NCBI GenBank assembly: GCA_015680685.1
Contig: MNCI01001077.1
Location: 377,627-441,626 of the forward strand
Origin: Gnetum montanum
Taxonomy: Eukaryota; Plantae; Gnetophyta
Length of the DNA: 64,000 bases
Direction: 5' to 3'
Position numbers and translations under genes: made by a program. The notes beneath the pieces are model-generated. The model was not told the DNA's origin. It made no database searches and was given only the letters and a program-made list of their open reading frames with translations. This document shows, one piece after another, positions 1 through 41,751 of the stretch (position 1 is its first letter; the number at the start of each line of letters is the position of its first letter).

Positions 1-352
1 TGTGATAATTGTCTTATTTGTTGCTTCTGCCTGCCCATTGCTCTGAGGATAATAACGGGATGAAAACGAATGTTTGATCCCTAGACTATCGCAAAACGTT
101 TTGGTCTCGGCACTGCTAAATTGTGGCCCGTTGTCAGTGATGAGTGTCATGGGAATGCCAAAACGGGTTACAATGTTTTCGAGGATGAAGTGGCACACGT
201 GTTTAGAAGTAGTCTTTCAAAGGGGCGCAGCTTCTACCCATTTCGTGAAATATTCGGTTGCTGTTATGATAAAGCCATGTCCGGCAGAAGATGTGGGTGT
301 TATCGTGCCGATGAGGTCCAGTCCCCACTTCTGGAAGGGCCATGTGATTTGT
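1..352 (-). pseudogene. Integrase catalytic core fragment
   Basis: Minus frame reads WPFQKWGLDLIGTITPTSSAGHGFIITATEYFTKWVEA...TDNGPQF...YPQSNGQAEATNK; near-identical to 29770-30120. Confidence 0.92.
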
Positions 353-487
353 GTTATATTTTTTATGTGTAAATTTTATATTTTTTTTTTGAAAAATTCA
401 AAGCGAATTCGAAAAAGCACGAAAAACGAGGCAAAAAGCAAGAAAAACGGAAAAGCAGCGGTGGTGTCAGCGTCAGCGTCAATGCGC

Positions 488-494
488 TATAAAA
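488..494 (+). promoter_or_regulatory. TATA box of antisense accessory gene (copy 1)
   Basis: CTATAAAAGGGG about 210 bp upstream of ATG 700; homologous CTATATAAAGGGG at ~33240 in copy 2. Confidence 0.65.
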
Positions 495-699
495 GGGGAG
501 AAGGGGTGTCATTTTTTCATTTGACTTTCAGAGCGTGAGCGTAAACTGTGAGCATAACCCCAGCGTAGACGCCAAGCGAAACCACAGCGCAGACGCCGAG
601 CGAAACCCCAGCGTAGATGCCGAGAGAAAACCCCTGTTTACGTCACGCGTAAACCACAGCATAGACGCCGACCAGACGAGCCACGGCGTAGACGCCGAG

Positions 700-3600
700 A
701 TGGCCAGAGGCAAAGAAATAGTAGTCCGAGGATAGAAAGGACCCGAACTGACGTTCGCGGAGGAGAGTGAGGCGATGCTGCAGTGTCTAGCCCGCCCGAG
801 CGTCCCCGCATGGCCCGGATCTTCTGGCAGGTAGGCCTTTGACTCTGTTTTCATTGATTTTTAGCGCCTGTTTTCTTTGTAGCGTAGACAGTTTGCGTAG
901 GGTTTCGGCGTATACACCGAGCATGAAGGGTTTAGAGCAATATATCAGCGTAGACGCCGCGTGTGTTATTTTTAGCATAGACTGTCGCGGCTTCGTTTTT
1001 ACGGTATCTAGCGTAGACGATTGTCGGCGTATATGCTCAGCGTATACGCCGAGCATAAGTCGGATACTTCGCAGCGTAAGTCTGTTCGGCTTAAATTTCT
1101 ATATTATGCACGGCGTAGATAGTTTTTGGTATGCGATTTCTACGCCCAGCGTATACACCCAGCGTAACTGCTTTCGTAGGCCCAGCGTATACGCCGGGCG
1201 TAACTGTTTTCATACGCCCCACGTATACGCTGGGCGTAACTATTTTTCCTACACCCAGCGTATACGCCGAGTGTAACTACTTTCGTACGCCCAGCGTATA
1301 CGCCGAGCGTAACTGTTTTCGTACGCCCAACGTATATGCTGAGTGTAACTATTTTTCCTATGCCCAGCGTATATGCCAAGCGTAACTGCTTTCGTACGCC
1401 CAGCGTAACTATTTTCGTACACCCAGCGTATACATCGAGCGTAACTGTTTTTCCTATGCCCAGCGTATACGCCGAGCATAACAGTTAGAAAAATTTTCTG
1501 CGAATATCTAATTTCCAAAATGACGTTTTCAGTATTGATCTTTGGTGTTGTTTCAATGGCTTGCAGAGACATTGAGCCTCCCCTTCTAGTGATTAAGTTA
1601 GTTGGGGTTTTGACATGGTTTGGTCCTTTGGAGGATGGTGACCCGACCTCGAATTTGGTTGTTGAGCACAATGGGGTCTGGTTCCGGGACGGGGCCAGCG
1701 AATTTTTGGCCTTCTTGCTAGACCATTTCAATGTCGTGGTTTGGTCTCACCTAGGCGAGGATGTGGCATGGAGCATCATTGAGGCCATGTTGCCTGGCGC
1801 GGAGAAGGGCATCAGAATATTTATGGAGGATATTGATGAAAGGCTACTTGTCGCTTAGGGTGTTCCCCCTGGTGGTCCAAGGTCTGCCCGTCCGTTGACA
1901 CATGTGTGGGACCAGCTGCTACGGGGGCCCAACTATATCAACAACACATTGTTCTTAGCTGGCCGCGCGCACACTTTGTTTCAGAATCCCCCCGGCACAG
2001 TATACCGGGTGGAAAGGTAATTTCGTCTTAGCTTTGGTTATTCCTCTCTTTTTCACATTCAAATACTTAATCTCATTTCGACACATGTTTTTGCCTTCCC
2101 GCAGGCCAAAAGTTACACCAGATGGGGCCTACGCGGGCGACGATGGGATTGAATTTGTGCGTACGGCTGTGGAAGTGTTCAAGGTGGGTCCCACCCTTCG
2201 CGGGACCATTTTGGCCCACACTAGGGACGCCATGAAGAACTTCCCCAAGATATTTTCAAAGGCGTTTGCACAATGCGCCGCGCATGGCTGGTTGCATGCC
2301 GACTGGGCCCCTAATGGGCCAATTTTCCCATCTGCTTCTGATCTGGGTAAAACCTCAAAGTCCAACACTAGAAGTAAGTGGCAATGTTTCCTAGATGTCG
2401 TGTTTGGTTTGGTCAATTTCCAAGTGTCAAGCTAATATGAAGGTTTTGGGTTTGCCTTTACAGCTAGCACCACCTCCAGCGGGGATTCCGTTGTGACCGG
2501 GAGGACTGAAACNTTCATTTGACAGATCTGTTTCCCGCTATAGTGCCCGTATTAAGGGTGTTAAAGTAATTTTTGAATTATCACCCCAATTTTTTGCAGA
2601 TTTGTTTGGCGTGCCTACAAGTGTCGTAAAAATCGTTACAGACAGGATGCTTAAAGAAATTGACATGATCCGTGATCTAGAGGAGTGGTTAGGGGTGACC
2701 AAGGGTGCCAAAGGATTCCCAATGCAGGGGAGAACGAAGGTTGAGGAAGTCAACGAGCTTTATCCCCTATTTAGAGCACGTTTGTTTTCAAAGACTCTAT
2801 CACAAGTCAAGAGTCTTGGGGTCGAAGTAGTGCGAGTCATGCGCACTATTCTAGAGGCTAGCGTGCGCTACAACTGGGCTGAATTTTTATTATCAGGAAT
2901 GACCAAAGAGATAGAGCAGTTGCGTTCGAACATAGAGGCGCAATCCCATTTTACCTTTGCTTTCTTCGCCAGCTACATTCGTCGCTTGGCCGAATTTTTG
3001 GTGGTTCGTGGGGAAAACAAATTTGTTTTACGTGATAGGAACCAGCTATCTCACCCTTGGGTGAATCACTTATTCGACACAGCCAAGTCCCAAGGCACCC
3101 CCGAGGGGATTGATGAATCCCTTACGATCACTACGGGTGGATCGTCTGGTCCCTCGCTTCACACACGCGACAATATAGGGTTGGAACCTGATGAAGTACC
3201 CTATACTACAAAGAAGGCGGAGCGGGTGGTCAAGGAAACAATAGGCAAAGTGATGTCCAAGTTGGGGAAGCATGACAGCACGGTTGAGGGAACCAGTGAG
3301 ATTGAGCCGCCCAGAGTAAAGCGGATTCGATTTAAGATTCCTGGTAAACTTCTTATTTTTATCTTACTTTTCTTACAAATAGTTTTAACGGTTACTAGTT
3401 GTATGTATCTGACTTCATTTGTTTTGTATTGAGCAGTCAAGAGACACGATTTGCGGACCATACCAGAGGACGAAGAGTTAACCGACCCAGCGGGAGGAAC
3501 TGAATTGCTGGGGGAGGGAACTGAAGGAACTAGAGGAACAGGAGGAACGGGAGGTACTGAACCCCTAGATGATCAAGCGGAGACTGAAGGAATGTTCAGC

Positions 3601-4995
3601 AGCTTTCTTACAGGGGACCTTGAGCTTGGAGACCCCTCGACGCAGGAAGAGATCAGAGGGAACGGTATCTCTCTTTACTCAGTTATGTAGCCTAATATAT
3701 TCCTGGATTACTTTATTGTGAATTTTTTGTTTGACTCAGAGGAGAGCGAGACCATCCCAGAGAAGGAGTCAGAGATCCCCCCCAAAGTGCCTCCCAAGGT
3801 TAGCGGCTCACGCACTGATGGACCTTTTACTTGGATGGAAATGCCAAGTAAAAGGGATTTCGTAGTTGGGGTGGCCGAAGAGGTTGTCGAGTGGATCGAA
3901 GGGATCAATCATGACATAGGTATGGATGCGTCCAAATATTTTTACTATGTTAGAGTTTGATGCTCAATTCTATTTGTTCTAACGTTTGTCTTTTCCCTGT
4001 GGACAGGTGCCCAACTGAGGTGGGATCCATCCGAACCTGTCAATATGGAGAGTTTGCCTACACTTTCTCCTGAAGTTGAACAAGTGCCCAGACCTGTTTA
4101 CGAAGAGGTAGCAGAGGGCTTCGTTCACAATGCCAAAGTGATATGGACGTGTAGGCGCTGCATTGAACAATTGTGGCTCCAAATTCAGGTGAAAGAGAAG
4201 GAGAATTCTGAATTGTCAACGAAATGTGATGATCTGAAGGCCTGGTATGAGTTCGCCGCAACTAAATTAAGCAATGATCGCTCTTGGCGGACCTCTGAGG
4301 TTACGTATACAAGGTATTGGAACCTACTCAATTTCCATGCGAGGCTGATACAGAGACTAGGAGAGCGCAGGGCCCAAATTGATTTGCTGAATACAAAATG
4401 CCAAGATTGGAAGGCTTTCACCTCCAAAGTACGTAAATCGGGGTAAGATGAGAAGAACCACAAACACCAGTAGAAGAAGTCGCTAAAATAAGTATCTATT
4501 GAGAAGCGATAGTTAGAAATGTTTGTGGAGGGTCTTGGTCTACGCTCTGCCTTTGACACATTCTCCCAAAACACAATTGTAGAGATGGAATCTCCTAAAC
4601 GACGGATTACGATAGCCTCTGGGGAGGTGTCGGTGGGTGAGTTCTCTTTGAAACGTCCCACCTGGTTAGATGTTGACAAGGGGAAGGCTCTGGCAGATAT
4701 TGACTTGGGTCTCAATGGGACGGACTGGGCAAGTATTTCTGAAGAGGAGATCCTACGGTGACTTGAATTCGGCTTGGGGGGACCTCCTATGGTAAGCGTT
4801 TTGTCTTTTTGGATTTAATTGATTTGACTAATGTTTGGAATCATATCATTCGCTCATTTTTTGTGTTGATTATTTCCTCTTTGGTCTTTTCAGGATGAAG
4901 GCAGGGATGAGACTGGAGAAGTTCTCCCCAGTGGAACAGGGGCCTCTGATGCTGGTGGGCCCAAGGAGGACGATCCTCATGCCCCAGACGTTTAG
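700..4995 (+). pseudogene. Antisense 8-exon accessory gene, copy 1: degenerate FCP1/NIF-like domain + plant-transposon-type domain + acidic tract + coiled coil
   Basis: Exons 700-830, 1567-2016, 2105-2373, 2464-3343, 3437-3664, 3740-3919, 4007-4791, 4894-4995. All introns are GT-AG and phases match wherever checkable (exon 4 contains an N gap). A few in-frame stops (e.g. 733, 1856, 4444, 4471, 4510, 4759). Exons 1 and 2 have the same lengths (131, 450 bp) in copy 2. Confidence 0.85.
1141..1480. repeat. ~36-bp tandem repeat (~9-10 copies) built on palindrome GCGTATACGC, in intron 1
   Basis: Units TACGCCCAGCGTATACGCCGAGCGTAACTGTTTTCG at 1141, 1177, 1213, 1250... Confidence 0.9.
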
Positions 4996-5220: not shown

Positions 5221-5535
5221 ACTAGTTTATGGCCATTTCAAGCCCCATGCATAGTTTATGACCATCTCGGGCCTCATGCGTAGTTTATGGCCATCTCGGG
5301 CCTCATGCGTAGTTTATGGCCATTTTGGGCCCCATGCGTAATCAAGGGATGTTTTGGAGGACGCGGATAGATTTCTCGGCTAATCGATCATTGCTGATCG
5401 TGGCTAGTTTTATGTCGTTGCGGACATGATAGTTTAGTGTCATTTCGGACCGGGAGTGGAATTTAATTATTTTTCCTATTTTATCGTAGTTTAGTGTCAT
5501 TTCGGACTTTTTATAGTTTAACGTCATTTCGGACT
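5221..5535. repeat. Motif array TAGTTTA(N)..GYC..TYGG(A/G)C between PR stop and accessory-gene 3' end
   Basis: Four 29-bp units TAGTTTATGGCCATCTCGGGCCTCATGCG (5221-5340) and four TAGTTTAGTGTCATTTCGGAC-type units (5405-5535). Confidence 0.85.
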
Positions 5536-5548
5536 AAGAGTGGCAGTA

Positions 5549-8500
5549 TCACTTCAGTAATTTTTTGATCTTTTTCGTTTTAATGTTAGATGATGTTTCA
5601 ATAGGTATGATCCGATACTCAGCGTCACCTTCGCTGATTACATTAAACGGTAATTCGGCCCAAGGGACCTCTGATGGAATGTCTTTTATGTTAGCACTTT
5701 CAGCTATTTCAATGTCCGTAGGGAGCTCTATATCAGTTTTTATTCGAGGGGGCACAGACGTTTCTGTTTGAGGAAGCTTTTGTTCCACGTCAGAAGATTT
5801 ACTGCTTACCGATGATTGTAGATCTTCATTATTTTGGCTAGGCTTTTCAAGTTCGATTTTCAAGCCTTGGTCCATGTCCACATGCGATGAGATAATAGGA
5901 GTAACTGCTTCGGCACGTATGACGATTTCTCTGCCTTCATAAGGCAGATGAATTTCCTGATGGATAGGGGAAGAGACAGCTCTCAGTTGGGCTAGCTAGG
6001 GTCTTCCTAATATTAGGTTGAACCCTGGCATCTCGTCCACTACTAGGAATTCAGTAGATGTCAGGAATTGATCTCCCACTATAAAGTCTAAGGTTATCGA
6101 GCTTTTCACCATTACGCATGACCCACTGAATGACTTTAAACATGTAGTCGTGGCTGGTTTAAGTAGTTCAGTAAGCCCTAGTTGCTCGATAATGTGGTAC
6201 GGCACGACGTTTGTTGCAGCCCCATCGTCTACATGGACCCTATGTATTTTAAATTGGTTTACACAGATTGTTATGAACATAGGAGCTATTGTCACCTCCT
6301 TCGTTCTTTTATCGACCTTGATGCTGTCGTCATGAAAGTTTAGAGGCTTAAGAGTAGTTCCATGAGGTGAGAACATCACCGCATGGATGGAGGGTTCGTT
6401 TGGGGGTAAATCCTCGCTCACCGGGATTGATGTTAACATGCACACTAGAGCTTCCCGATGCATTTGAGATGTTAATACTAAGTCATACAAGCTCAGTGAA
6501 GTGTTTTTTTGTTTTAATGCTTGCATGACTTGTGTCAAGGCGGCTGCGAATTTTTCACTGTTGGGGGTGTTTCTATTGGTGCTGATTGGATCCATTAGAC
6601 CCAACAGTTTTATCACCTGTCTTGTTGGTTTGTCAGTTTTCGGAGCTGTCATTTCGGATGATTGATGTTTTTTAGATGACTCACCTTCATTGCCTGTGCT
6701 TGGTTGATCGGTAGATGATGACATGGGCATGGAATTGACGGGAGTGGGCTTCGGTGGCCCCAGAGCTAACCCTTGGCACTCTCTCTCCATACGTTCACGC
6801 GCGAGTCTATCTCCGGGACGTTCTCGCGTGTGGCGTGGAGGTGCCGTTGGTTTTGGCATTTCGGGTTACCCTGGGAGTTTAACCACATATGGGATTGGAT
6901 GGGGTGATGCTTGTACTGTTGGATGTGCTTGGTTAGAGGGCCGGACAGGTAGCCTAACGACGTAGGGCTTGGGTTGGCGTTGTGTTTGTGACATAGGGGC
7001 TTGGTAGTCATCAGTACCTTTGGGTGTTCTAATGACAAATGGGGTTGGTTTCGGCAAAGGTTGGACCTCCGATGTTGGAGTGGCTGAGGGTACTTGGACC
7101 ACAAAAGGAGCAGGCTGGTTATGCGGAGTTTGTGCGTTTAGGGGAGTGACGGGAGGGACACGCACCACATATGGCCTGTCGCGTGTCGCGGTGTTAGGTA
7201 TGGCCACTGTCGGGGGTATCTGAACGACATACGGTTGTTGTAAAGGATGAGACAGCCGGGGTGCGGGTGTAGACGCAGGGACAGGTGGGTGAACTACGAA
7301 AGGTTTGTTAGACGTTTGCTGCGTATATTCGGGAGATGTGGCATTAATGTAAGATGGCTCAGAATCGTTGTCAAGGCAGACTGTACTGATGGTGTATGAC
7401 ACCTCTTTAATGTTTAAAGGGTCTTTATAGATCCCCATAGCTTGATTTTGCGGCTGAATAGGGTTTGCTTTGTCGAAGGTGATTTGTCCTTCATCAATCA
7501 TTCGCTGTAGGTCCTGATTCAAGGTGAAACAGTAATCTGTTCCGTGCTCGTTTCATTGATGATAATCACAAAAGCGATCCACCCTGAAGCCTTTAGGTAC
7601 AGGAGGCTCATCCAGAGTTGCTAGGCTTGGGTTCTGAATGAGTTGACAGAATCGATCATGTCTCTGGATGGGCGCAGGAGATAACTATTTATACTGCATT
7701 AAACCAACCTTTAGGAGCTGATCAAAAAGCAGGGATGGCTTCATGGGCAAGGGTGTATATTGAGAGGGTTCTTTCCTCTCAAAATTGCGTGTGCGGTTCG
7801 CTGGATTATTCTGTGACGATGATTCTTGTACAATCGTCGGAGTTGGTTTGTTGTAATTAGCAGGGGTTTGCGGCGGCCTAGTTGGTTGTTGTGCCCCTGC
7901 TATCGATGCTATGGTCATTTTAGCCTTTTCTTTATCTTTTTTAGCATGTTGATTTTTAAAGGCTATGTAGGCCGGGTCGTTGCTGTTTTGTCCTGCCTCT
8001 TCTATATTTTTAATTTGCTAGAAGGCTTGGTTGAGATTGAGCGCGTTTAGATAGTACAGCTTGGATTTAAAGAAATCGTTGACGGCCCCTTTCAAAATAG
8101 TGAGCAGGTATGTCTGGGAGATTTTCTTGTGCAGCTCATTAAGGGCTGCGCTCCACCTCTGGATAAATTTCTGGACCAGTTCAAGCGGTATCTGCTTGAC
8201 CTGAATGAGGCTGTCTAGTGTGGCCTCAGGTTTCAGGTTATATTTGAACCTGGTCACGAATTGGTGTAGTAGGTTCTCCAAGGAGGAAACAGAGTTTCTT
8301 GGGAGCGCCCTATACCAATCGAGTGCTCTCCCCGAGAGGGACATGGGAAACACGCGAAGAATTGCATGGGGCCATACTTATAGCAGTGCGCACTCTAACC
8401 TGAACGTTATTAAATGCGCGTTAGGATCTGTCTCCCCATTGTACTTGGTTAGCGTAGGTAGGGAGATGCCTGTGGGCAGAGTTAAAGGCGGGACGGAAGA

Positions 8501-9698
8501 GCTGATGGGGTCATCGTTATAGAAGTCTAATACCTTCAACTCCCCGTCAGCGGCTATCTTGAGACGTTTTACCTCGTCGGTTAATTCCTGCATCATTCTT
8601 TTAGCATCTGCCCAATGCTGAGCATTTGGGAGCATGGCGGTTTGGGCTTGTGGCACGCTGTATGAGTTAGACTGTTGAACGGTGGATTGGAAGGCTGAAA
8701 GTTACGTTGTTGGTGGTTGCATTTGTGGGAAGTGTACAGTAGGTGGCACTAGGGGCAATACATTATAAAGAGGAGGCTGTTGCTGCTATGGTCGCAGTTG
8801 TGCCTGGGGCACATGAGCTGGTGGCAACGTGTAGGGTGGTACGTAGTGGTGGGGGATCTATTGCGACGTCATGCCTATCATTGGCCATTGCCCGACCATG
8901 TTGTATGAGGGGGCTCCTTGTTGGGTTACGACAGTGAAAGGGGGTGTGTGCATTTGGACATGCGGGATGTAGTGGGCAGATGTGGACATGGGTATAACAT
9001 GTGGTATTCTTACCACTTGGGATTGGAATGTCACTCCCATGTTACTGTGAGGTGGCGGTGCTTGTGAGGATGAACCCATAGCTATAAAAGGGAAGGAGTT
9101 GGGCAAAGGGTTGCCCTGGGGAGGGACCTGGGCTGACGCGGATGTTTCTTGTAACGACGCTTGAGTGTGGGAAGAGTTAGGGGGTTGGAGGGGTATGACC
9201 TCCCCTGCGTCTGGGTTAAATATGGGGTTCATGTGGTTATGTGGACTAAGAGTATGATAGGAGTCTTCGTGCTCAGATTGGGCAGCGAATTCGTCCTCTT
9301 CGTCCCGTTGTGGATCTGCCGTAATTTGGTCTAGCGATTGGCTCCTGTGAAAAAGGAGCTGCGCAAAGAGTTCCGAGAATTGTTCTGGAATGGGGATTAC
9401 ATCGTATGGGGAAGGGATGAATTCATATCCCCCTTTGTAAAATATTTCAAATTGCCTTTTTACTTCCATTTCAGCCCGATCAACTGCCAGGCCAGCTTGC
9501 ATCTTAATGCAGATGAAGTTATACTCATCTTGGGTTATAACGTTGGCAGCAGGGTCTCTCCCTTGCAACCTCAACGACCGACGGGGCCCCACTGTGGATT
9601 TCCCTCCCATATGTTGTGTGACAGATTGCTGGGCAGCCGTTGTGTCTGAGATGTTAACGTTCTAGGTAGTAGCAGCGGTGAAGTTCATGGGATTCATG
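5549..9698 (-). pseudogene. gag-protease of element 1
   Basis: Gag core KYNGETDPNAHL...FPMSLSGRALDWYRALP...FVTRFKYNL; FCDYH-x3-H-x4-C knuckle (~7530-7575); protease VHVDDGAATNVVP...FNLILGRP; scattered stops; own stop at 5549. Confidence 0.9.
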
Positions 9699-10012: not shown

Positions 10013-10029
10013 CCCTCCTTCTAGCGCCA
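10013..10029 (-). promoter_or_regulatory. Primer binding site, complementary to the 3' end of plant tRNA-Asn(GUU)
   Basis: TGGCGCTAGAAGGAGGG 5 nt inside the LTR end; plant tRNA-Asn ends ...CCCTCCTTCTAGCG-CCA (recalled, not searched). Confidence 0.8.
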
Positions 10030-10034
10030 AATTC

Positions 10035-11281
10035 TGTACCACCTGAAATCGTCGATCCTTGGCTAGAACGGGAAACAGAGACCGTGGGATCGCAGGGCGA
10101 GGACAGAAGACCCCACATTCGCCTAAGGGCATGCTGAAATGCACGAAGGTAGGGTACCTTGGGTGGTCCGCACGCGGATCAGACAAGGATTTCCCTGAGT
10201 GCCACCGAAGTGTTATACGCTGGGTTATGCGTAAACGGAGCGTAAATAGTGAAACAGGCGTAGATAGAACGTAAGCGTAAAGGACGTAAACAGAGTAGGG
10301 CGTAAACAGCGTAAACAAATATAGGCACAACGTAAGCGCATACAGGCGTGGACAGCGTAAACAGATGTAGGGTGTAAGCAAAAGTAAACGGTGTAAATAG
10401 TGGGCGTATGCGGGCGCAAACAGAGCGTGAACTTAAACAGGCATAAACGAAGCGTGGGCCAAATTAATGTAAAACTATAAAAGAACTTTCAACAAAGGTA
10501 AATAGTAGATTACAGAGTCAAAATGTTGTGCACCGGTCTAACGCAGTCGTGTAGGAACACAAGGCGGACGTAAAGCCCTGGTGGACGTAGGGACGCAACT
10601 GGTTAGCACGGTAGGCGGAGCACGGATTGTGCTTAGCGTACAGGACTTCCAGCGTAAGCGTAAGCGTAAAGGGGTTTCTGCAACGTAATTGCTCTACGTC
10701 TGCTCTAGTAAAATTTTTCTGACCTTAAAAATGCGGAAAACTGGGCTATTTATAGGGGTAGGGTTACTAGGAAAAGCGGACTGGGAGACACGTGGCGTAT
10801 AGACCGGGCGTTTACAATTTAGAAAGATGGTATACACTGGGTGTATACACTACAACAGGCCGGCGTATACGCTGGGTGTATACGCCGGGCGTGTACGCTG
10901 GGCGTAGACGCTGGGCGGATGTTGGCGTATACGCCGGGGCGTATACACTGATGGATGCTGGACGTCGACTTGCTTCAATTCTTGCTCCTGTTGCACCTGC
11001 TGAGCGTGCGTGTGAGACGTGTATGCAGAGTGTCGTGCGTAGACGCTGGGCGTGGATGCTGGGCGTAGACGCTGGGCATGGACGCTGAGCATGGATGCTG
11101 GGCGTGGATGCTGGGCGTGGACGCTGGGCGTATACATTGGCTCAACACTTAGTAAAAACCAGGTGTTTGATTCTCAAAATTTCCCGGTGTGACTTCAAAT
11201 GTAGCCAAAGTCATCTGTGGGTCATGGGGATCTGCTTTTTGTCAGACAAATGCTAAACTCAAAGATTTTTGTGGTGTTTCA
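10035..11281 (-). repeat. 5' LTR of element 1 (family A)
   Basis: Termini TGAAACACCAC...GGTACA on minus; TATA (CTATAAATAG) ~10746-10755; homologous to 27217-28408, 40471-41649, 19830-21365, 49058-50997. Confidence 0.92.
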
Positions 11282-11619
11282 AATGGTGCAAGGTCTGTCC
11301 ATGAAAATAGCGATAAAAGTAATATGACATATTTCCCTAGCAGAACATGCAACCATAACAGGTAAGACAATGGAACCCCACTTGTGCTATGAAAGGGTAC
11401 AACATTATCCATGATCACCCAAACCCTTATAATGGTGCAAGATCTGTCTCTGACAATGGCGATAAGGGTAATATTACAAACTCCCATAGCGTAACTAGCA
11501 TAGGTAGGTATCAACACCTAGTGCAGTGCACATTTTCAAAACAAATACAAATTATAGCAAAATGATAGAGAAAATGACCTAACGCATATATCACACAAGG
11601 AAGGTGAAGAACTACTTAC

Positions 11620-26760: not shown

Positions 26761-27216
26761 TTTGTGTGACACTTTACAATAAAATGCACTAACATTAGAA
26801 AAGAAGTTTAGACATACCAACAATGCTGCAACAAAAAAAAGAGCTCACAAGAATCTGCTAGCAACACTGAGGTTCTCATTACCTTGACTCCCAGAAAATC
26901 ATAGGTTACACTAGAAGTGCATTACCAAAACCACCTAAACCCTTGAGATGGTGCAAGGTCTATCTCTGACAATGGTGATAAAGGTAGCACCGCATATTTT
27001 CCTAGTGTAACAAACAACCATTACGGGCAAGGCAACGAAGCCCCATTTGCACTGCGAAAAGGTACAACACCTAGACTCTTGAGCAGTTACGTACTGTGTT
27101 TGTAGAATATTATCCAAGATCACCCAAACCCTTGTGACGATACAAGGTCTGTCTCTGACAATGGTGATAGGGGTAATATTACAAGCTCTAGTAGCTTAAC
27201 TAGTACAGGCAAGTAT

Positions 27217-28408
27217 TGTATCGTCCGAAATCATCGATCTACGGCTGGAAGGAAATAGAGGCTGTGGGATAACAGGATGCGCATAGAAGACCCTACCTTC
27301 ACTTGAGGGCGAGCCAGAATGAACGAAGGTAGAGTACCTTGGGTGGTCCGCACATGGATCAGACAAGGATTTTCCCAAACGTACACCAAAGTTCTATATG
27401 CTGGGTTATATGTAAATGGCGTAACAGGCGTAAATCAGAGCGTTAATAGTGTAATCGATGAAAACAGAGCGTAACGTAAATGAGGGAAAATAGAATAAAT
27501 GCAACAATTAATGCAAACTGTAAATGATTTTGGGAAGAAAATGTAACAATGAAATTATAGAATGAAAGCACAATGCACCGGTCTAATGCAGTTGTGACTG
27601 GAACACAAGGCGGATGAAAAGCCTTGGTGGATGCAAGGATGATTGTGGCTAGTTCACACTATAGGCACAGCGTAGAGGCTGTATGCTCAATGTACAGGGT
27701 TGTCCAGGGTAAAAGGTTTTGTGCTCTGGTTCGCAGCATCTCTACTCTCTGGTGTGCCCTGGGAATTTTTGCCAACCAACGTGGGTCTAGTGCAAAAATT
27801 GGGCTTTTATACAGTGTTTTGACGGTGGACTCGGGTTGGGAGACACATGGAGCATTGACCGGGTGCAAGAGCGTAAAATTTACAAGTGTACAATATGTTA
27901 CATTTGCTGGGCGTATACGTTGAGTGTATACACTATATCAGGTGAGTGTAGACTCTGGGCATATACGCTGGGCATATACACTGGAGGTGCTGGGCATATG
28001 CGAACTTGGACGTAGATGTCGTGGATGCTAGCGTACACGTTGATGGTTGCTGGCGTATACACTGATGGTTGCTAGCATGTACCAAGTCTTGTTCTGCAGT
28101 GTTGTCTCCATGCCATCTCTAGGGATTTTATTGTCGGGTGTATGCATCTGTTTTATGTTGCTGGGCGTACATGGAGGCGTGTACGCTGGACGTCTACACT
28201 GGGCATCTAAGCTGGGTGCATACGCTGTGAACTTGAGTGTAGACGCTGGGCGTATACGCTGAGAATGTACACTTGGGAATATACGCTGACACTGCATACT
28301 TAGTGAAAATTAAGCATCTGATCTCTGAAGTTGCCATGTGTGACACCAAATGTAACTGTGGTTGTCTGTGGGTTCCAAGGACCTGTTTGGTGTTGGACAA
28401 GTACTAAG
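27217..28408 (-). repeat. 3' LTR of element 2 (first ~22 bp and PPT missing)
   Basis: Aligns to 40471-41627; similarity stops at GTACTAAG (28408). Confidence 0.9.
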
Positions 28409-28899
28409 AAAATTTGTTTTGATCACGTACTCATGCTCAAGTGCTACATTGTGTCTTGCAACTGCTTGAAAGTGTTACAGTCCACAACAGTATGCTCGAA
28501 GTTTTGAGTGTACTGGGTGTATCAGACATGTGGCTGAGTAGAGTGTGTCAGTGAGTAGATAGAGAGTGTATCAGGAGATGGTGATGTACTAACGAATGGT
28601 TCGATTTAGTTTTACCATGTGTGCTGTGAACATTGTCCCATATTGCTGCTTGTGATGAAGTGCATTCTTGTGCGGAAACCTCTAGGTGTCATCCTGCAAA
28701 CATGACTCCAAGGAGACAAGAAAACCATGAGTGAATAAATGATCCTAGACTTACATAGCTATAGATGGAACAAAGATGCTGAAGGAGATTTCAGGCACTA
28801 TATACAAATGGTAGCAACATTGGTAGGATCATCTGATGGTGAGCGATGCAGTGATGAAGTTTGAATGTGCCGGCGGATTGAGGAACCAGAGATGAACTT

Positions 28900-29220
28900 A
28901 CCAGTTTATAGTCTTGGCGGACTATCATGGGTTAGTTTTATGTCGTAACCCATTGGACATTGCCCATTTAGCATCGTGGTGGATGTTGCATTGCCAGTTT
29001 CTAGTCTTAGCGAACCATAAAGAGGAAAACTAGTTTATAGTCTTAGCGGACTCTGACGAGTGTGACTGTGGCAGTTTACTGTCATGCTAGACGGGCACTA
29101 GTTTATCGTCATTGCAGACACAGTGTGATATCAGTTTATCGTCATGATGCTGGGACGAGCTGTGGTATCAGTTTTAAGTCATGATCTAGGACTATTCTAT
29201 GGTATCAATTTATAGTCGCA
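28900..29220. repeat. Motif array downstream of integrase (family A)
   Basis: ~10 units YAGTTTAT-x-GTC-x3-GCGGAC at 30-40 bp spacing with dissimilar spacers. Confidence 0.8.
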
Positions 29221-29252
29221 ATTCCAGGTCTCGCACGTACCTAAGCTTGTAC

Positions 29253-32200
29253 TCAAATGTAGAACAGTTTTAGGAACAGGTGGTTGGTTGGATTGGCAAG
29301 CTCATTTCCTTTCATATTAGCTAACTTGAATGCTCTATTGTCAAATGCTTTGGTGACCAAGTAAGGCCCTTCCCTATTGGTTGAGAATTTATCCGGGTGT
29401 TCCCGAACGGCCTTAAGTACAAGGTTGCCTTCTTTAATAGGGCGCTTATGGATGTCGTGTCGGTGTCGTTGCCATTGTTGTTTTTGATACCATTCGATCT
29501 AATCGAGTGCACATATAAGTTCCTTCTCCACCGAGTCTAGGTCAATGATGCGTAGATCATTATTTTGTCCTTCGTCGAGAAGTCCGGAAAGTGTGATCCT
29601 TAAAGATGGTACCCATAATTCCAAAGGTAAAACAACTTCTGAACCATAAAGAAGACTATATGGTGTTTTTCCTGTTGAAGTTCGATGTGTAGTACGGTAT
29701 GCCCACAATGCGTGTATCAATTGTTCGTGCCACTTTCTCTTGCTTTGGGTAAGCATCCTCTTAAGTATTGCAATAATCATTTTGTTCATTGCCTCTGCTT
29801 GCGCATTGCTCTGAGGATAGTAAGGGGATGAAAACGAGTGTTTGATCCCTAGACTTTCACAAAAGGTTTTGGTCTCAGCATTGCTAAATTGTGGCCCGTT
29901 GTCAGTGATGATTGTCATGGGAATGTCAAAGGGGGTTACAATGTTTTCAAGAATGAAATTGCATACATGTTTAGATGTAGTTTTTCGAAGGGGAGCAGCT
30001 TCTACCCACTTCATGAAATATTCGGTTGCGGTTATGATGAAACTATGCCCTGCGGAAGATGAGAGTGTTATTGGGCCAATGAGGTCCAATCCCCACTTTT
30101 GAAAGGGCCACATGATTTGTGTTTTATGCAACTCATTTGGTGGGACATGGATTAGATTGCTATGTTTTTGACAAGTGATACATGTTTTAGCCTTGGAGAG
30201 ACAGTCGTATTCCATGTGTGGCCAATAATAGCCTAAGCGTCTGATCTTTGTTGCCATGGCTTTTGGTGCTATATGTCCTCCAAATAGTCCATCATGTACT
30301 TGTTCGACGATGGTTTGGGCATTGGTACTACCAACGCATGTTAGAAATATGCCTTCATAAGATCTATGACATAATATGTCCCCTACCAGGGTATACTTCT
30401 TAGAACATTTTCATACTGCATCATTTTGTGCATTTGTTAGATGTCGTGATGTTTTTCCACGTAGAAGGTATTCTTTTATGTCATCATACCATTCTATCAC
30501 GCGTGTTGTACTAACAAATGCAATCGGCAGCATGTCAAGAGTATCGGTTATTGGTTCGGCACAACTGGTTATAGAGCTTGGTAATGCATGGAACGCGTCT
30601 GGTGATATGTTTAATGCTAATGTGGCTAACGCATCCACGATGGTGTTATCATTTCTAGAAACGTGTTGCACATTGATGTTTTCAAATCACCTCATTAGGT
30701 GTTTTCTAGGTCGCAGTATGGTTGTAAATGTTGGGCTTTGCATGTATAAACATCTGTGATTTGGTTTAAAACTAGTTGTGAGTCTCCTCTGTCCACAAGC
30801 CATGTGATGTCTAGAGTCAATGCTACCGCGAGACCTCTAAGGAGACCTTCGTACTTTGCTATGTTGTTGGTACAATGAAAGTTGAAATGATAAGCAAAGG
30901 GTCGGATTTCCTCGTAGGGATAGGTGATGACAGCGGCTGCACTTCCCCCTCAAGAGGTGGATGCTCCATCAAAGTTTAGAATGGCATCGTAGTGGTTGGG
31001 AACTATGTCTATTGCACTTATATTCTCATCGAGGAATTCTGGCTCTATTATCGCTTGATTGTGCATTGGTGACGTGGCCATTTGACTTGCTATGGCTTGA
31101 CCTTTAACTGATGATTGCGCTATGTAGTGCAGGTAAAATTTAGCTATCATGGCTTTCCAGTGGGCTATTCGACTTGTTTCATAAATGTTTCCTATGATGT
31201 CCCTAAGCACATTATCCTTGAAAATTATATTAACTTGGTTACGGAAGAGGTAATGTCGCCATTTTCTTAAAGAAAAGACCAAAGCTAAACAGGACCTCTC
31301 CACATCGTTATACTTTTTCTTGTGGGCAACTAATGCATGGCTTAAGTAATATACAGGGACTTAGGTTCCATCATCTTGTTTTTGGCAAAGCATAGATGCG
31401 ATTGACAAATCTAAAGTAGCGAGGTAGATGTAAAATAGTTTATCGTTTTGAGGTGGATAAACCGTGGGTAATCGGGAAAGGGCCATTTTAATGTTATCGA
31501 ATGCTTCTTGACACTACAGAGTCCATTCAAAATGGATGTTTTTGCATAACAGGTGGTTCATAGGTTTTAGTTTGTCTATCAGTTTTTCTACGAAGCGCCT
31601 GATAAATTGTAATCTACCTTGTAGACCTCGAAGTTCGGTAAGGTTGCTTGGTGGTTTTAGGCTTGCTATGGCCTTAACCTTATCAAGGTCTACTCGTATC
31701 CCTACTTCTGAGGCTATAAATCCAAGCATTTTTCTTGTCTTGATGTTGAAGACACATTTTTGTGGGTTGAGTCTCAATTCATACTTTAAACAATGTTTTA
31801 ATACTAGGTCAAGGTCTTGTATATGTTATTCTGATGTTTTTGACTTAACCACAATGTCGTCTACATAGTCGTTGAGCGAGTGTAACATGTAATCACTAAA
31901 GATGAATGTCATCGCTCTTTGATACATGGCCCTATAATTTTGAGGGTTTTAGGGCATCATTGTGTAACAAAAGGTTTCCCATGGTGTCATAAAGGTTATC
32001 CGAAGCTGATGTTCTAGGTTGATGCATATTTGATTGTATCCCGAGAAGCCGTCCATAAAAGATAATAGTGCGTGCCTAGTGGTCGAGTCAACAAGTTGAT
32101 CGATGTTGGGTAGAGGAAAATCATCTTTTATGGTTGCAACATTTAAATCCTAGAAGTCAATGCATAAGCAAACACTTCCGTTCTTCTTTGGAACAATGAC

Positions 32201-32851
32201 CATGTTGGATACCCACTCGGCGTAATCAACAACCCGGATGAAACCAGCCGGATAAAGTTTGGTGATCTCATTACGAACTGCCAATGCCACTTCAGGTTTA
32301 ACCTTTCATGCATTTTGTTTTACCGGTATTAATTTTGGATCAAGGATAATGTTGTGCTAGATAATTCGAGGCTCTAACCCAGGCATGTTTGTGTAAGACC
32401 AAGCGAATGCTTTCATATTTTCCCTAAGCACGTCTTCAATGTTTTTGGCTAGTTGTGGTTTTAGTAATGTGCTTAATTTTAGTATTTTAATTTCCCCATC
32501 GGGCATGGTTATTGGGGTTTCTTTCAACGGGTCTTTGGTGATATTTTTGGCTTCTATGTCAAGGGATTTTGTCATACTTTTATACTTGTCTATTGTTTGT
32601 TGTGTTGAGGCTATGACTGCATCGTCCGTTGATGAACATAAGTGGATGAGGTTTATGCTGATGTCCCTTGCAATTTTGTCGTATGGTCCATCGATAATTA
32701 ATGATTTGATTAAGTGCTGGAAATCCATCAGGCTTGCTCCTACCAATAAACAGAGAGCTGAATGAGCTAATGGGTATCGTTCTATGTTCTTTGGTAATTT
32801 TAGATTATGTGTACATGCATGATGATGGATTATCGTCACACCAGGACACAT
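29253..32851 (-). pseudogene. pol: RT - RH - aRH - INT of element 2 (degenerate)
   Basis: AFAWSYTNMPGL, FPLPNIDQLVD, MDGFSGYNQI, YVDDIVV, RLNPQKCVF, LNFDGASTS, CTNNIAKYEGL, WGLDLIGP, TDNGPQF. Confidence 0.93.
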
Positions 32852-33030
32852 GGCAGTTTAAGGCCATACCGGGTTGTGGGTGGTAGTTTAATGCCTTACC
32901 GGGCCAAATGTAAGCCGCAGGTGGCAGTTTAAGGCCTTACCAGGCTGTAATGGGTTCGTATGTGGCAGTTTAAGGCCGTACCAGGCTATAATGGCAATTT
33001 AAGGCCATATCGGGCTGTGGGTGGCAGTTC
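32850..33030. repeat. ~30-bp tandem motif array between RT start and accessory-gene promoter
   Basis: ~6 units TGGCAGTTTAAGGCCATACCGGGCTGT. Confidence 0.88.
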
Positions 33031-33239
33031 ACGTTGGAATGTTAGGTGTAAATGCCTGGAATGGGGTTCACAGGGGAACCGGAATGTAGTAATTTCTGTT
33101 TTATTTTAGATATATATATTTTTTTATCATTTTTTGGGCAAAATTCGGCGAAAAAATAAGTAAAAAGGCAAAAAGTGGCAAAAAAGTAGCAAACCGGGAG
33201 GCGGCGACATAAGCGACGGTGGCAGCGATGACGGAGTGC

Positions 33240-33247
33240 TATATAAA
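33240..33247 (+). promoter_or_regulatory. TATA box of antisense accessory gene (copy 2)
   Basis: TATATAAA followed by a G-run, positionally homologous to 488-494. Confidence 0.65.
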
Positions 33248-33520
33248 GGGGGGGGGAAGGCTTCATTTGTTACATTGCATTTCAAGGTGTAACATCTGAG
33301 TGAGCATATGTGTAAACTACGAAACTCAGCATAAGCATAAACCGAAACCCTAGCATAGACGCCGAGCGATGAAACCCCAACGTAGATGCCAAGCGATGAA
33401 ACCCCAGCGTAGACGCCAACGAGTAAACCCCAGCGTTGACACCAAGTGTAGAAGGTCAAGCATAGGCGTACAGAGTTTCAACCTTGAGCGTAAGCTGTCA
33501 ATCCCAGCATAGACGTCGAG

Positions 33521-36500
33521 ATGGGCAAAGGCAAGGAAGTGGAAGGGCAGGGGAGGAAGGGTTTGGACTTGACCATCGCAGAGGAGAGCGAAGCCATGCT
33601 GTAGTGCCTACCCAAGCCAAGGATTTTGTCATGGCCTGGGTCATCACACAGGTAGGCTCTGATCTTGCCTCCGTTAGTCATTTTTTCTTGTGCATGTTTC
33701 GTAGTGTAGACAGTCTCGTAGGGGGCTTCGGTGTATACGCCGAGCATAGAGAGTTAGTGTAGAGGGTTTTCGGCGTATACGCCTATCGTAGAGAGTTAGC
33801 GTAGAGGGTTTTCGACGTATACCTCGAGCATAGATTCACAGCATAACGTCTTGATAGCATAGACTATCAGCGTAATCCATTTTATCAGTGCACAGTGTAA
33901 ACACTTTCCTTGCAAGTAGTGTAGATGATTGCATTAGCGTAAACTACGGTGTAATAAGTTTCCTATGCACGAAGTTTTGTTTTATCAGCATAGGTTTCTA
34001 TTTTATCAGCGTAGACAATCTACGTTGTGATGGCGTATACGCTAAGGGTTTCTACAGTGTATACGCTGAGCATGAAGGGTTGATCCTTTCCAAGTGTGGT
34101 ACAGTGTAGACGTATTTTTCATGTTTTCAGCATAAACTATTTGTTCAGTGTCAAGCGTAGACCATTTACACTGGAGGCTCCTACAGTGTATACGTTGAGG
34201 GTTTCTAGCGCGTATACGCTGAGCATAAACAGTTCGGCTAGCGGCGTAAACAGTTCGTTGTCAATATAAATAGTTGACGGCATATACACTGGGTTAAGTA
34301 GCGTATACGCTGAGAGTAAACAATTAGCCATTTTTTCAGGTGTTGGTCTACGATGTGAACTTTTGATTTTCAGGTCATTTTAATGCATGGCTAATTTATT
34401 GTCACATCCTGATTGCTTGCAGGGATAGTAAGTGTTTTCTCCTTATTGTTGAGCTCATTGGGGTGCTAACATGGTTTGGCCCCATTCAGGCTGATGAGCC
34501 TACCCCGGATCTAACTGTAGACAACAATGGGGTCTAGTTTAGAGAAGGTGTGTGTGAATTCTTGGCCTTCATGCTAGACAACTTCGAAGTGGCAATCTGG
34601 TCATAGCTAAGTGAATTGGTGGCGCGAGGTGTGCTTGAGGCGATGTTGCCGAGAGCTGGGGAGGGTGTCATGGTCTTCATAGAAGACATTGATGAGGGGT
34701 CGTTTGTTAACAAGGATGGTTCTACCCATGGGCCCAGGTCTACACGCCCGTTAGCGCATGTGTGGGCACAGTTGCCACGAGGGTTGGACTACCTCAACAA
34801 CACTCTATTCATAGCTGCACGTGCGCTCATGCTGTTTTAGAATCCACCTGGCACCGTGTACCAGGTGGACAGGTAGGACCATTTAAGTTTATTGTTTCTC
34901 TTCGCCGTTTGGTATTTGCTTCTATTTTGACATCCATTTTTAAGGTTAACCTGGACGGGATGTGCGTTGAAGATGAAGGACTTGTCCTTGCTCGCACCTC
35001 TCTAGAGGCTTTTATGGTAGGTCCCACCCTTCGTGGAACTGTGTTAGGCCCAACGAAGGGTGCTATCGTTCATTTTCATAAATAGTTCTGTAGAGCATTT
35101 GCGATGTGAAAAGCTCGTGGATGGCTGCATGAAGACTGGTCAGACAATGGGGCAGTCTTCCTTCTTGACTCTTGCAGTAGATCCAAGTCCAGCACTAATG
35201 GTAAATGACAAAATTTCCTAGATGTGTTAACGTGTTTGTTTAACTACTGAGAGTTATATTGATATGACAATATCAAATTGCATTTGTAGTCGATGTACCT
35301 CCTAGTGGGGACCCTGTCACAACTGGGTGAACTGAGATAACCCTGTCAATGATGTTTGGGGAGGTGACTAAGGCTCAAAAGTGGTTGTGTAACCATGTCC
35401 CGTCATCTATTGTTCATTGCTTAGACAATGTCGGCCTTATGGAGCTGTTCACGACGCCAAGTCCTGATGTATCTATAGCAAAAATGATCGGGATCGTGGA
35501 TTCCTTTAATGATTCTGTCTCCTACTATAGCACCTGGATTAAGGGTGTTAAGGTAGTTTTCCATCTATCGCCTGAATTCTTTTCAGACTTATTTGGTGTA
35601 CCGGTAGATGGCATAAGTGTAGTTTTAGACAGGGCTCATAAAGAGCTCCAAACGGTGCGTGAATTGGAGGACTGGTTGGGTGTGGCCAAGGGTGCCAAGG
35701 GATTTCCGATGCAGGGGAAAGCAAAGGTTGAGGAGGTAAATGAACTGTATCCCCTATTTAGGTCACGAGTATTCCCCAAAACCCTTTCCTAGGTATGGAG
35801 TCTTGGGGTTGAGGCTATACGTGTCATGCGAACTATCCTGGAAACTAGTATGCGCTATAATTGGGCCCAATTTTTGTTGTCGAGCATGCACAAGGAGATA
35901 GTGTGATTACGCTCGAATGTTGAAGCGTAGTCCCACTTCACCTTTTCCTTCTTCGCTAGTTACCTTCATCTCTTTGCCAAGTTTCTGGTAGTCTGCACGA
36001 ACAACAAGTTTGTTCTACGAGATCGGGGCCAACTATCCCGCCCATGGATCAACCACTTGTTTGAAATAGCCAAGTCCCAAGATGCTCCTGAGGGCATTGA
36101 TGAGTCCATGTCTATTACGACCGGGGGATCATCGGATACCTTGATTCACACTAACGATAGTTTGGGATTAGAGCCAAATGATGTGCCTCTCACTGCAAGA
36201 AGAGCTGAGCAGGTTTTCAAAGAAACTGTTAAGCAGGTTTCTCAGAGCTGAAAAGACACGAATGCCCAACTGGGGAAGTTTCGAATGTGAGCAAGCCACG
36301 GGTGAAGCGTATACGATTCAAGATGCCTGGTAAGTAGACATAGCCCGCTTATTGCTTTATTATTTTCATTTTGCTCATAATTTTTTCTTCAATCGCTGAG
36401 ATGTCACTGATGTCTTTGGATTGATTTGAGAAGTGAGGAGGCAGGTGTTAGAAACTATTACTGAGGAGGAGGAGACCAACACAGGGTGGAATAATGAAGA

Positions 36501-38013
36501 GGAAAATGTGGAGAAGGATTAGGGAGGAGGAATAGAGGAGTTAAAGGAAAACACCATAGAAACTAAGCCGTTGGATGATCAGGGTGGTGTCGACCAAATG
36601 TTTAGCAGCTTTCTCAAGGAAAATCTGGACTTAGGGAATCCCCCAAAAGGTGACATGGAGCATGGTATGTTTTCTTTTTATTTTACTTTATATTGCTTCG
36701 TTAGTTGTCATTTGTATGATCTTTTATTTTCATGTTTTCATGTCTTCTAGACGAAGGCAGCGAAACTAGGACGGTGTGCTTAGACGTATTCATGAAGATG
36801 GTTCCCCCTGAGAGGACCGTGGAGGTTAGTTCATCCCACACCTGTGAGCCATTTACTTTGACAGAAATGCCAAGTAAGATGGATTTTGTGGCTGGAATTG
36901 CAGAAGAAGTTGTCGAATGGATTTAGGAGGTCCACCTTGAAATAGGTATAATGTTTTTAAATCGTTCGTCATTTTAGGATGCCACACCCTATTTCTGTTA
37001 TCTTAACGTTTGATCTTTTCGTATGCATAGGTGCCAAGTTGAGGTGCGATCCCTCTGAGATAGTCAGCATAGAGAGTTTACCGACACTATCCCCAGAAGT
37101 GGAGCAGGTGCCAAGACCTATTTATGATGAGGTGGCGGAAGGCCTAGTACACAACGCCAAGTCACTATGGACTTGTAGGCGTTCTGTTGAACAGTTGTGG
37201 TTGTAGATCCAGGCAAGAGAAAAGGAAGTCTTCGAGTTGTCGGTTGAATGTGACGATCTTAAGGGTCGATACGAGTTCGCCGCTACCAAACTAAGCGGTA
37301 ATTACTCTTGGTAAACGTCCGAGGTTACGTATACGAGATATTGGAATCTACTAAATCATCATGCATCGCTGACTTGGAGAATGGTAGTGTAAAGCCCAAA
37401 TTGATCTCCTGAACCTCAAATGTCAAGATTGAAAAGCCTTCAGTTCCAAGGTTTGCAAGTGGGGTCAGGATGAGAAGAATCACAAACATCACTACAAGAA
37501 GTCGTTAAAAGAAGTGTCCATTGAAAAGCGGTAACTAGAAATGTTTGTGGAGGGTTTGGGTTTACGCTCTGCCTTTGATACTTTTGCCAAAAACACAACT
37601 GTTGAGATGGAGTCACCTACAAGGGTGATTACAACTGCTATTGGGGAAGTGTCTGTTGGTGAGTTTCCTCTGAAATGTCCTATCTGGTCAGCTGTTGACA
37701 AGGGAAAGGCCTTGGCAGACGTTGACTTAGGCCTTGATGAGACAGATTGGACTAGTGTCTCAGAAGAGGAAATCCTTTGTCGGTTGGAATTTGGCTTAGG
37801 GGGATCTCCTATGGTAAGCATTTTGTCATTATGAAATTGATTTGCTAAATAACATTTGAAATTTTGGCCCTCTCTTGTTCTTATATTGGTTGTCTCATTT
37901 TGTATTTTCAAGATGAAGGTGGTGACGATGCCCAAGAAGTTGGCCCTAGTGGAGTGGGGGCCCCTAACGCCGGTGGATCTAAAGGGGATGATCCTCCCTT
38001 CCCAGATGCTTAG
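33521..38013 (+). pseudogene. Antisense accessory gene copy 2 (family A)
   Basis: Exon 1 33521-33651, exon 2 34423-34872, same donor/acceptor positions as copy 1; LIVELIGVLTWFGP...FREGVCEFLAFMLDNFEVAIWS; GVAKGAKGFPMQG...YPLFRSRVFPK; ends PDA*. Confidence 0.85.
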
Positions 38014-38484
38014 TTTTTAGTTTTTCCTTTGGAACTATGCTGACTCAAATTGACACGGGAATTGTAAATTGAAAATTTTGAGATGGACGGAAACAGTTGA
38101 CACTTATAATTGTACAGCATTGCATGTAAAAAAATTTTTTTGTTGATTTTGAGTTTGATTGCACACATGACACGACAATGTAAAATATTTTGGTTCATTA
38201 TATTTTTTATTTTTTGTTTTAAGTTTAATGTGCAGATGTAATTATAAATCATAATGATAAACGAAAGAGGAAAACAAAGTACAAGTGAGTGATCTCGGTT
38301 GTAAACAAGTAACATTTCGAGCCCCAATTGTAAACAAGTAATATTTCGAATAACGTGGGTGGGTTTCTCGGTTGACCGACCATTTTTTTATCGTGGCTAG
38401 TTTTATGTTGTTGCGGACATGATAGTTTAGCATCATTTCAGACATGTTGTAGTTTAGCGTCATTTCGGACGGGTTGAGATGGTA

Positions 38485-40215: not shown

Positions 40216-40448
40216 GGTTACGGCGTATAGAGTGTAGCATGTACAAATAGTAGTGTAGATGCTGGGAGACTTATGGATGGAAGTGTTTGAACTGAACAGC
40301 GTAGATGCTGGATAATTTGCAGCTTAGGTTTTACACTAAGCAACGTAAACATTGGGAGGATTTCAGAAGGAAGCTGCGTATGGTCGGCGGCGTAAACGCT
40401 CAGAAGTGTAAATGCTGGAAAGCTTGCAGGTAAGGTTTTAGGCAGAGG

Positions 40449-40465
40449 CCCTCCTTCTAGCGCCA
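40449..40465 (-). promoter_or_regulatory. PBS (tRNA-Asn type)
   Basis: TGGCGCTAGAAGGAGGG. Confidence 0.8.
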
Positions 40466-40470
40466 ATTTT

Positions 40471-41649: not shown

Positions 41650-41751
41650 GGTATTAGTACCCAACATAGTGCACATCTTTAGAAAAAATACAATGACGAT
41701 GCCATGACAGCTAAAACAACAATAAGATAGGGAAGGTGAAAAACAACTTAC

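Follow-up and report, generated by a model that had tools for sequence, protein, structure and literature searches.

A predicted catalytically inactive NIF/FCP1-like exon in an antisense accessory gene of Tat-clade LTR retrotransposons from Gnetum montanum

The window, that is, the whole 64-kb stretch of Gnetum montanum DNA analyzed here, consists of Ty3/gypsy LTR retrotransposons, decayed and nested in one another. Gag, protease (PR), reverse transcriptase (RT), RNase H (RH), a second RNase H (RVT_3) and integrase (INT) domains were recovered by a Pfam scan of the window frames, the input being 127 of 130 stop-to-stop frames of at least 82 aa plus one shorter piece, with four frames of the intron-1 repeat omitted. 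In three pol regions RVT_3, an additional archaeal-type RNase H (aRH), sits between RT_RNaseH and rve. Passages of PMC6317226 and PMC10508981 give a second RNase H between RH and INT as the mark of the Tat clade, and the elements were assigned to this clade on that basis. The integrase has 74 matches at E ≤ 1e-40, the named ones being from seed plants, with a conifer protein at the top; as these matches are only 33–54% identical, the element lineage appears to have no close annotated relative.

Two families, A and B, with integrases 59% identical, are present in the window, and a map built from the window’s own domains gives the same order in both: LTR, primer-binding site, gag and protease, next an antisense gene, and then RT–RH–aRH–INT. 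This accessory gene has PR on one side and RT (or INT) on the other in each of the four cases within the window (Table 1). The full order is seen in element 2; its two LTRs share 91.2% identity, and its 5-bp target duplication contains one mismatch. The spacer between gag–PR and RT–RH–INT in this element is about 5.7 kb long; gag–PR is likewise split from pol in Ogre, according to sections of PMC4408406, which describe an intron between PR and RT. In the window elements the PR–RT spacer accommodates a whole gene.

Table 1. Positions of retrotransposon parts, accessory-gene parts and NIF-like exon copies within the window
Feature	Position	Strand	Remarks
Integrase, element 1	1..354	-	domain map
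TATA-like box, tandem-repeat 5' leader, ATG, exon 1	488..830	+	box at 488, ATG at 700; promoter role inferred
Intron 1	831..1566	+	GT..AG; 36-bp tandem array; 12 copies of the palindrome GCGTAnACGC
Exon 2, copy 1: NIF/FCP1-like HAD domain	about 1567..2016	+	phase-2 introns on both sides; acceptor ends at 1566, donor starts at 2017
Motif I site, copy 1	1595..1603	+	Lys-x-Val; Glu-x-Val in most family-A copies; Asp-x-Asn in relatives
Motif II Ser	1745..1747	+	present in 4/4 copies
In-frame stop, copy 1	1856..1858	+	private to decayed copy 1
Motif III site	1889..1891	+	Arg in 4/4 copies; Lys in 83/85 aligned relatives
Motif IV site, copy 1	1958..1963	+	Ala-Gly; Asp-Asp in relatives (82/85, 74/85)
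Predicted exons 3–8	2105..4995	+	predicted from sequence; stop codon 4993–4995; one intron (3342–3436) spliced in RNA
Gag and protease, element 1	5400..8700	-	domain map
5' LTR, element 1	10030..11282	-	primer-binding site at 10029; 10 palindrome copies
NIF exon copy 3 (family B)	about 26320–26770	-	tblastn E 3e-13; motif I Asp-x-Val; stops and frameshift
Element 2 (family A)	27216..41650	-	LTR, partial gag–PR, antisense gene, RT–RH–aRH–INT, LTR
NIF exon copy 2 (family A, element 2)	about 34423–34873	+	tblastn E 3e-54
NIF exon copy 4 (family B)	about 54040–54490	-	tblastn E 2e-13; motif I Ser-x-Gly; stops and frameshift

In element 2 (32700–33240 and 38400–38500), the start of pol is found about 5.7 kb past the stop of gag–PR, back to back with the TATA box of the accessory gene, and an acceptor-like site is located near 32742. 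Expression of this pol may involve splicing that removes the entire antisense gene, or a promoter of its own. Element 1 is devoid of RT, RNase H and aRH, with a gap at 355 to ~400, its integrase adjoining the accessory promoter; this is either a private deletion or the state of a non-autonomous subfamily.

In element 1 the accessory gene is antisense to the element and has about eight exons, the predicted protein being about 1,000 aa long. Exon 1 (43 codons) has one stop in copy 1, and its pN/pS against copy 2 is 0.29. Predicted exons 3–8 encode a helical segment, a central domain (about 300 aa), an acidic linker that includes a basic stretch, a coiled-coil-like exon and an acidic tail. For the central exon there is no useful match in Pfam (none at E ≤ 5) or PDB, and none in a word-indexed protein search, the latter being a weak negative; the central domain may resemble PMD-type domains, and a PMD-like DNA-binding role can be suggested for it only tentatively. 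Exon 3 was considered as the tail of the NIF domain and ruled out, as it scores below zero against the profile of the relatives. Some 50 codons of copy 2 are replaced in copy 1 by one N, at 2513, through either an assembly gap or a deletion.

Three RNA runs contain 67–470 reads from related copies, none of them at least 99% alike to copy 1. The intron at about 3342–3436 (GT..AG) is spliced in three reads of run X20, and the joint is absent from the DNA run. At either end of exon 2 no splice joint was seen in the RNA runs, the depth there being low (0–4.4). Run X17 is strongly one-sided over exon 7, and the direction fits the accessory strand if the library is stranded in the usual way. At 3890–4490 the depth in X17 reaches 150, far above the rest of the gene, with 84 molecules starting at 4403; this peak may reflect a shorter transcript or a few amplified molecules.

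Exon 2 was interpreted in the first-pass annotation as a captured NIF/FCP1-like HAD domain that has lost its activity, and the peptide quoted there is indeed encoded on the plus strand, at 1568–2017. Four copies of this exon, from the two families, are present in the window, and all of them are broken by stops. The profile of the copies, scanned against 1.84 billion proteins, yielded 168 matches at E ≤ 0.001, the best one at 2.3e-10, and Pfam NIF is carried by 49 of the best 50 of these 168. No match was obtained at E ≤ 1e-10, so the element’s own family is absent from this protein library. The named relatives are proteins from Helianthus (annotated ‘FCP1 domain, HAD superfamily’), Sphagnum, Cyanidiococcus, Creolimax and Tarenaya; of 20 clusters checked, 15 are nameless. 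In the reverse direction, a profile of 85 NIF matches assigns 72, 60, 54 and 40 bits to the four copies, compared to at most 0.6 for 1,000 shuffles, these scores leaning high because the 85 proteins were found with the copies themselves. HMMER comparison of single copies with PF03031, suggested in the first-pass annotation, gave a divided result: NIF is the top Pfam match for three of the four copies (18.6, 20.5 and 12.1 bits for copies 1, 2 and 4; no match for copy 3), but all are below the cut-off of 21.8. A phmmer search of PDB with exon 2 gave no matches, a word-indexed protein search with the NIF alignment gave none among longer proteins (a weak negative), and no relatives were found in scans of metagenome and viral contigs.

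All four HAD motifs are in register in the alignment of the copies with 85 mostly short relatives. An AlphaFold2 model built on the deep alignment has pLDDT 88 and matches CTDNEP1 and Scp1 in Foldseek (E 1.7e-5), this model being partly circular because its alignment consists of NIF proteins. A control model from the element copies only has pLDDT 55 (residues 1–88 at 55–78, the C-terminal half below 50), and Scp1 and CTDNEP1 are again ranked first by Foldseek (E 2.4e-3). Comparison of this element-only model with 48,161 chains by VIA also places Scp1 first (116 aligned residues, rmsd 3.4, Z 7.5, a value that VIA itself classes as common), and most of the lower ranks are taken by HAD proteins. 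The models show the Rossmannoid fold of HAD proteins, in which motif I is followed by a beta-hairpin flap, the element-only model being confident for residues 1–88 only. Hence the NIF/FCP1-like HAD origin claimed initially is borne out by the profile search, the reciprocal profile, Foldseek and VIA, and the structural comparison proposed along with it returns Scp1 and CTDNEP1 as the best matches even when the model is built from the element copies.

At motif I the relatives carry Asp-x-Asn rather than Asp-x-Asp (Asp in 80 of 85, Asn in 75 of 85), which points to the DxN subfamily of FCP1-homology/NIF HAD proteins (PF03031) as the source of the domain. Judged by sequence, the nearest relatives are this DxN...DD subfamily and not Fcp1 or Scp1 themselves. 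The copies are similar to these proteins in the order of motifs over about 140 residues and in the predicted fold, with identity of 15–27%, but the relatives keep the Asp, the Lys and the Asp-Asp pair, and the copies do not. As described in passages of PMC13216928, fungal Tim50 has a NIF domain with neither the DxDxT motif nor activity, and the candidate pseudophosphatases include a NIF group of fungi that S. pombe possesses. We infer that the latter group belongs to the same DxN subfamily.

The nearest solved folds are those of Scp1/CTDSP1, CTDNEP1, Fcp1, UBLCP1 and Tim50. The element domain differs from Scp1-type proteins by the absence of DxDxT, of the motif-IV acids and of the pocket Tyr, and by being part of a retrotransposon protein. 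The suggestion, made at the outset, that the domain is a decoy binding the phosphorylated Pol II CTD, and so shielding it or tethering polymerase to the element, agrees with the best structural matches being the CTD-type phosphatases Scp1 and CTDNEP1, and with the description of the Scp1 catalytic aspartates as unnecessary for substrate binding in a passage of PMC7281111. However, the closest sequences belong to the DxN subfamily, for which no tested CTD role was found in the literature; its nearest sequences in PDB are UBLCP1 and Scp1-type proteins, with no closer structure, and thus Scp1 is simply the nearest solved fold. Besides, six residues past the motif-II Thr (which we take to be Thr152 in Scp1 numbering, so that this offset corresponds to Tyr158) CTDNEP1 has Tyr, while 72 of the 85 relatives have Asn and the four copies have Val, Val, Met or a stop. 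Within the Scp1 proline pocket as listed in a section of PMC7281111 (Phe106, Val118, Leu155, Tyr158, Arg178), this Tyr, mapped by the motif-II offset, is the sole residue that was mapped, and it is absent both in the relatives and in the copies. With the closest relatives being of the DxN type and the pocket Tyr absent, we consider a CTD decoy highly unlikely.

In Fcp1, as far as described in parts of PMC4436666, the first Asp is the nucleophile and the second one, the general base, Asp297 and Asp298 hold Mg, and Thr243 and Lys280 hold phosphate. In copies 1–4 the nucleophile position is occupied by Lys, Glu, Asp and Ser, respectively, and the +2 position, by Val, Ile, Val and Gly, so that neither the Asp nucleophile with Asp at +2 nor, at motif IV, the acidic Mg-binding pair is found: the latter reads AG, AA, AH and AC, with Ala at the first site in all four copies. 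The motif-I words of the other copies and the pairs AG, AA and AC were given correctly in the first-pass annotation; AH in copy 3 is read beyond a frameshift. The statement that the motif-I Asp survives only in family B holds for copy 3 and fails for copy 4, which has Ser.

To separate decay of single copies from the state of the family, DNA contigs of four runs were considered (four organism labels, three studies, 866–1,315 contigs each, over 1562–1995), covering family A at ≥80% likeness and majority letters only, with family B represented by its two copies; contig depth was not read as copy number. There are 32 majority differences, and none of them changes the +2 site or motifs II, III and IV. 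The Lys at motif I is private to copy 1, being Glu in copy 2 and in 99–100% of the contig depth in all four runs, and the stop at 1856–1858, to which the first-pass annotation does not refer, is missing from 98–99% of the depth. Motif IV reads Ala-Gly in the contigs. Since the Lys and the stop are private decay of copy 1, while the loss of acids is common to all four runs, the latter is family-wide, in line with the replacement of the motif-IV DD proposed earlier. Based on the motifs, the NIF-like domain is predicted, with high confidence, to be catalytically inactive. Alternatively, the domain could still be enzymatic, its mechanism or substrate having changed and the nucleophile being Glu in family A or Asp in copy 3; this would be consistent with the acid that most family-A copies, and copy 3 too, retain at motif I, and some degenerate phosphatases retain activity (as noted in part of PMC13216928). 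But a hydrophobic residue or Gly occupies the general acid/base site, no copy has either of the motif-IV metal ligands, and the nucleophile site of copy 4 is Ser, so that the probability of retained catalysis seems very slight.

Exon 2 is under purifying selection. Between copies 1 and 2 (141 codons), pS is 0.64, pN 0.22 and pN/pS 0.34 (95% interval 0.24–0.45), the differences by codon position being 0.32/0.14/0.50; for copies 3 and 4 pN/pS is 0.45–0.49. Other accessory exons have pN/pS of 0.16–0.38, and the integrase, 0.16. The dN/dS of exon 2, about 0.17, is similar to that of the protease-side region (0.17) and slightly above that of the integrase (0.11) and the later exons; the exon-2 ratio is rough because dS is near saturation (1.47). 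Later neutral decay could only have raised this ratio.

The possibility that the exon is a neutral passenger, a piece of a host gene decaying in the PR–RT spacer with apparent selection caused by RNA-level or overlapping constraints, finds some agreement in the stops of all window copies, in the small amount of RNA over exon 2 and in an antisense frame sharing the third positions, whose pN/pS is also low (0.51, 0.40–0.66); the NIF frame is nevertheless the lowest of the six. Against it stand the third-position bias, the absence of indels across 150 codons between copies 1 and 2, the conservation of splice sites and phase, the private nature of the copy-1 stop, and the presence of the exon in two families with such diverged integrases. 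The passenger reading is largely refuted already, and we give it hardly any credence; the NIF-like domain is very probably needed by the element.

The four copies form one clade both in FastTree (159 rows, support 99) and in IQ-TREE (55 rows, support 100), which indicates one capture. This clade is on a long branch, with no supported sister group in either tree. The domain is likely to have been captured from the host, as assumed from the start, although the trees support no sister group that would point to a donor, from land plants or elsewhere.

A more serious alternative is that the domain serves only as a scaffold or spacer, selection keeping the fold for folding or oligomerization of the larger protein and the old pocket being empty. 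The core hydrophobic residues (Leu6, Gly13, Leu15, Phe46, Trp59, Leu110) are kept, while many surface positions conserved in the relatives are lost, and the amino acid identity of the exon between the families is just 36–40%. Pro41, Asn66, Cys92 and Lys136, also conserved in the relatives and lost in the copies, fit plain scaffold drift. On the contrary, the motif-II Ser, the motif-III Arg and the first Ala of motif IV, retained in all four copies of the two families, look like a pocket that has been reshaped yet is constrained. With the acids lost and Ser and a basic residue kept, such a pocket suits phosphate binding without metal or turnover. A mere scaffold is therefore considered unlikely, and the domain probably has a partner or ligand to bind, beyond its role in maintaining a fold.

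The window contains 73 sites of the palindrome GCGTAnACGC, or 129 strand matches compared to 3.5 by chance, a flattering figure because the pattern was chosen after the repeats had been seen. The sites fall in 556–1486, 9777–11131, 27216–28408, 33344–34310 and 40299–41520, nearly all of them in LTRs and leaders of family A or in the accessory gene, where they occupy its 5' region and first intron; none is found in pol, and none of the 73 is in the family-B regions of the window. These repeats are candidate binding sites.

Taken together, we moderately favor an explanation in which the acid-less, selected NIF/HAD exon of this Tat-element accessory gene provides a regulator that acts in trans with a binding module devoid of catalysis. 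A single uptake of the exon, as a module with phase-2 introns at both ends, would have preceded the split of families A and B. The backward orientation would keep the introns from splicing in the genomic RNA that is copied, and would also allow the gene’s own promoter to survive. The pocket, with Ser and a basic residue and without Mg-binding acids, may bind a phosphorylated or other anionic ligand uncleaved. The weakest steps are the last two: the whole protein would enter the nucleus and keep the element transcribed against silencing, and in family A it would be guided by the palindromic repeat in LTRs, the leader, its own promoter and the first intron. Anti-silencing or trans-activation as the job of the protein is thus suggested tentatively. 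It is rather doubtful that the full scheme applies, in which a distinct Tat lineage is equipped with an anti-silencing or trans-activating system of its own, the protein binding palindromes in the LTRs and its own promoter and the inactivated HAD domain reading or shielding a phosphorylated host chromatin or transcription factor. If true, this Tat system would parallel, by convergence, the pairing of PMD and phosphatase-type domains in host genes.

Such pairing is known from PMD proteins, which, according to portions of 10.1101/2024.09.27.615353 and PMC7156037, recognize a palindromic motif, counteract Polycomb, and are found paired with or fused to phosphatase domains of the PP7 type; PMD relatives are encoded by Gypsy elements (passages of PMC5418596, PMC7156037 and 10.1101/2024.09.27.615353). 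In the VANDAL transposons, VANC has its targets in tandem repeats (PMC5735166). VANC and MAIN/MAIL1/MAIL2 with PP7L are thus element-encoded or element-related regulators using short repeated or palindromic motifs, and their likeness to the window gene is one of analogy only. PP7L, for its part, is not known to be an active phosphatase.

Among Tat elements, the closest parallels are Ogre and Retand, whose extra ORFs contain PMD, coiled-coil and Transposase_28 domains, which likewise have aRH between RH and INT (sections of PMC6317226, PMC4408406 and PMC11963269), and in which, as there described, an antisense accessory gene has a coiled-coil-like end, as here. The extra ORFs of Tat elements are known before gag or after pol (the same sections, and PMC7264820), whereas the window gene, with its roughly seven introns, is placed between PR and RT and carries a HAD domain near its start. 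In maize Grande, antisense genes have their own promoter (PMC7264820). A captured AlkB/2-ODD domain is described for orchid Ogre-like elements in passages of PMC9289625. In each case an enzyme domain, taken from the host in orchids and probably so here, has become established in a family of Tat retrotransposons, but the orchid AlkB, by those passages, keeps its cofactor residues and is active, whereas the NIF exon has lost the catalytic residues and stands much further from any donor.

The REXdb eORF table has 12 domains and does not include NIF, but its 1e-10 cut-off would miss the element domain; nor does the term appear in the main text of PMC9289625, PMC11963269 or PMC13468544. No report of a NIF/HAD pseudoenzyme or of an intron-rich PR–RT gene in LTR elements was found in the open-access literature. 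Captured domains in Tat accessory genes are already known, and what appears to be new here is the NIF/HAD pseudoenzyme and the position of the gene between PR and RT. According to a 2020 review (PMC7264820), most extra antisense genes of plant LTR retrotransposons have no recognizable source. The window gene makes the question of origin and job testable, as it has a traceable module, a change from enzyme to pseudoenzyme under selection, a new position and candidate target repeats. It also suggests a hidden class of intron-rich accessory genes, which surveys based on ORF length and domain thresholds would miss.

Some further arrangements were observed. A family-B LTR at 16177–17068 follows a pol and is in turn followed by a primer-binding site and gag, forming a tandem three-LTR arrangement, and solo LTRs resembling family A are inserted in family-B elements (19830–21366, 49057–51000). 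Among the relatives, five proteins (P0003 from Helianthus, P0005, P0008, P0009 and P0016) have two NIF domains each, the second one with degraded motifs (DxG, ExD, DxS; DT, EN, DN), and DUF724 is present in two of these five. As judged from such motifs, pseudo-NIF domains arise independently in host genes.
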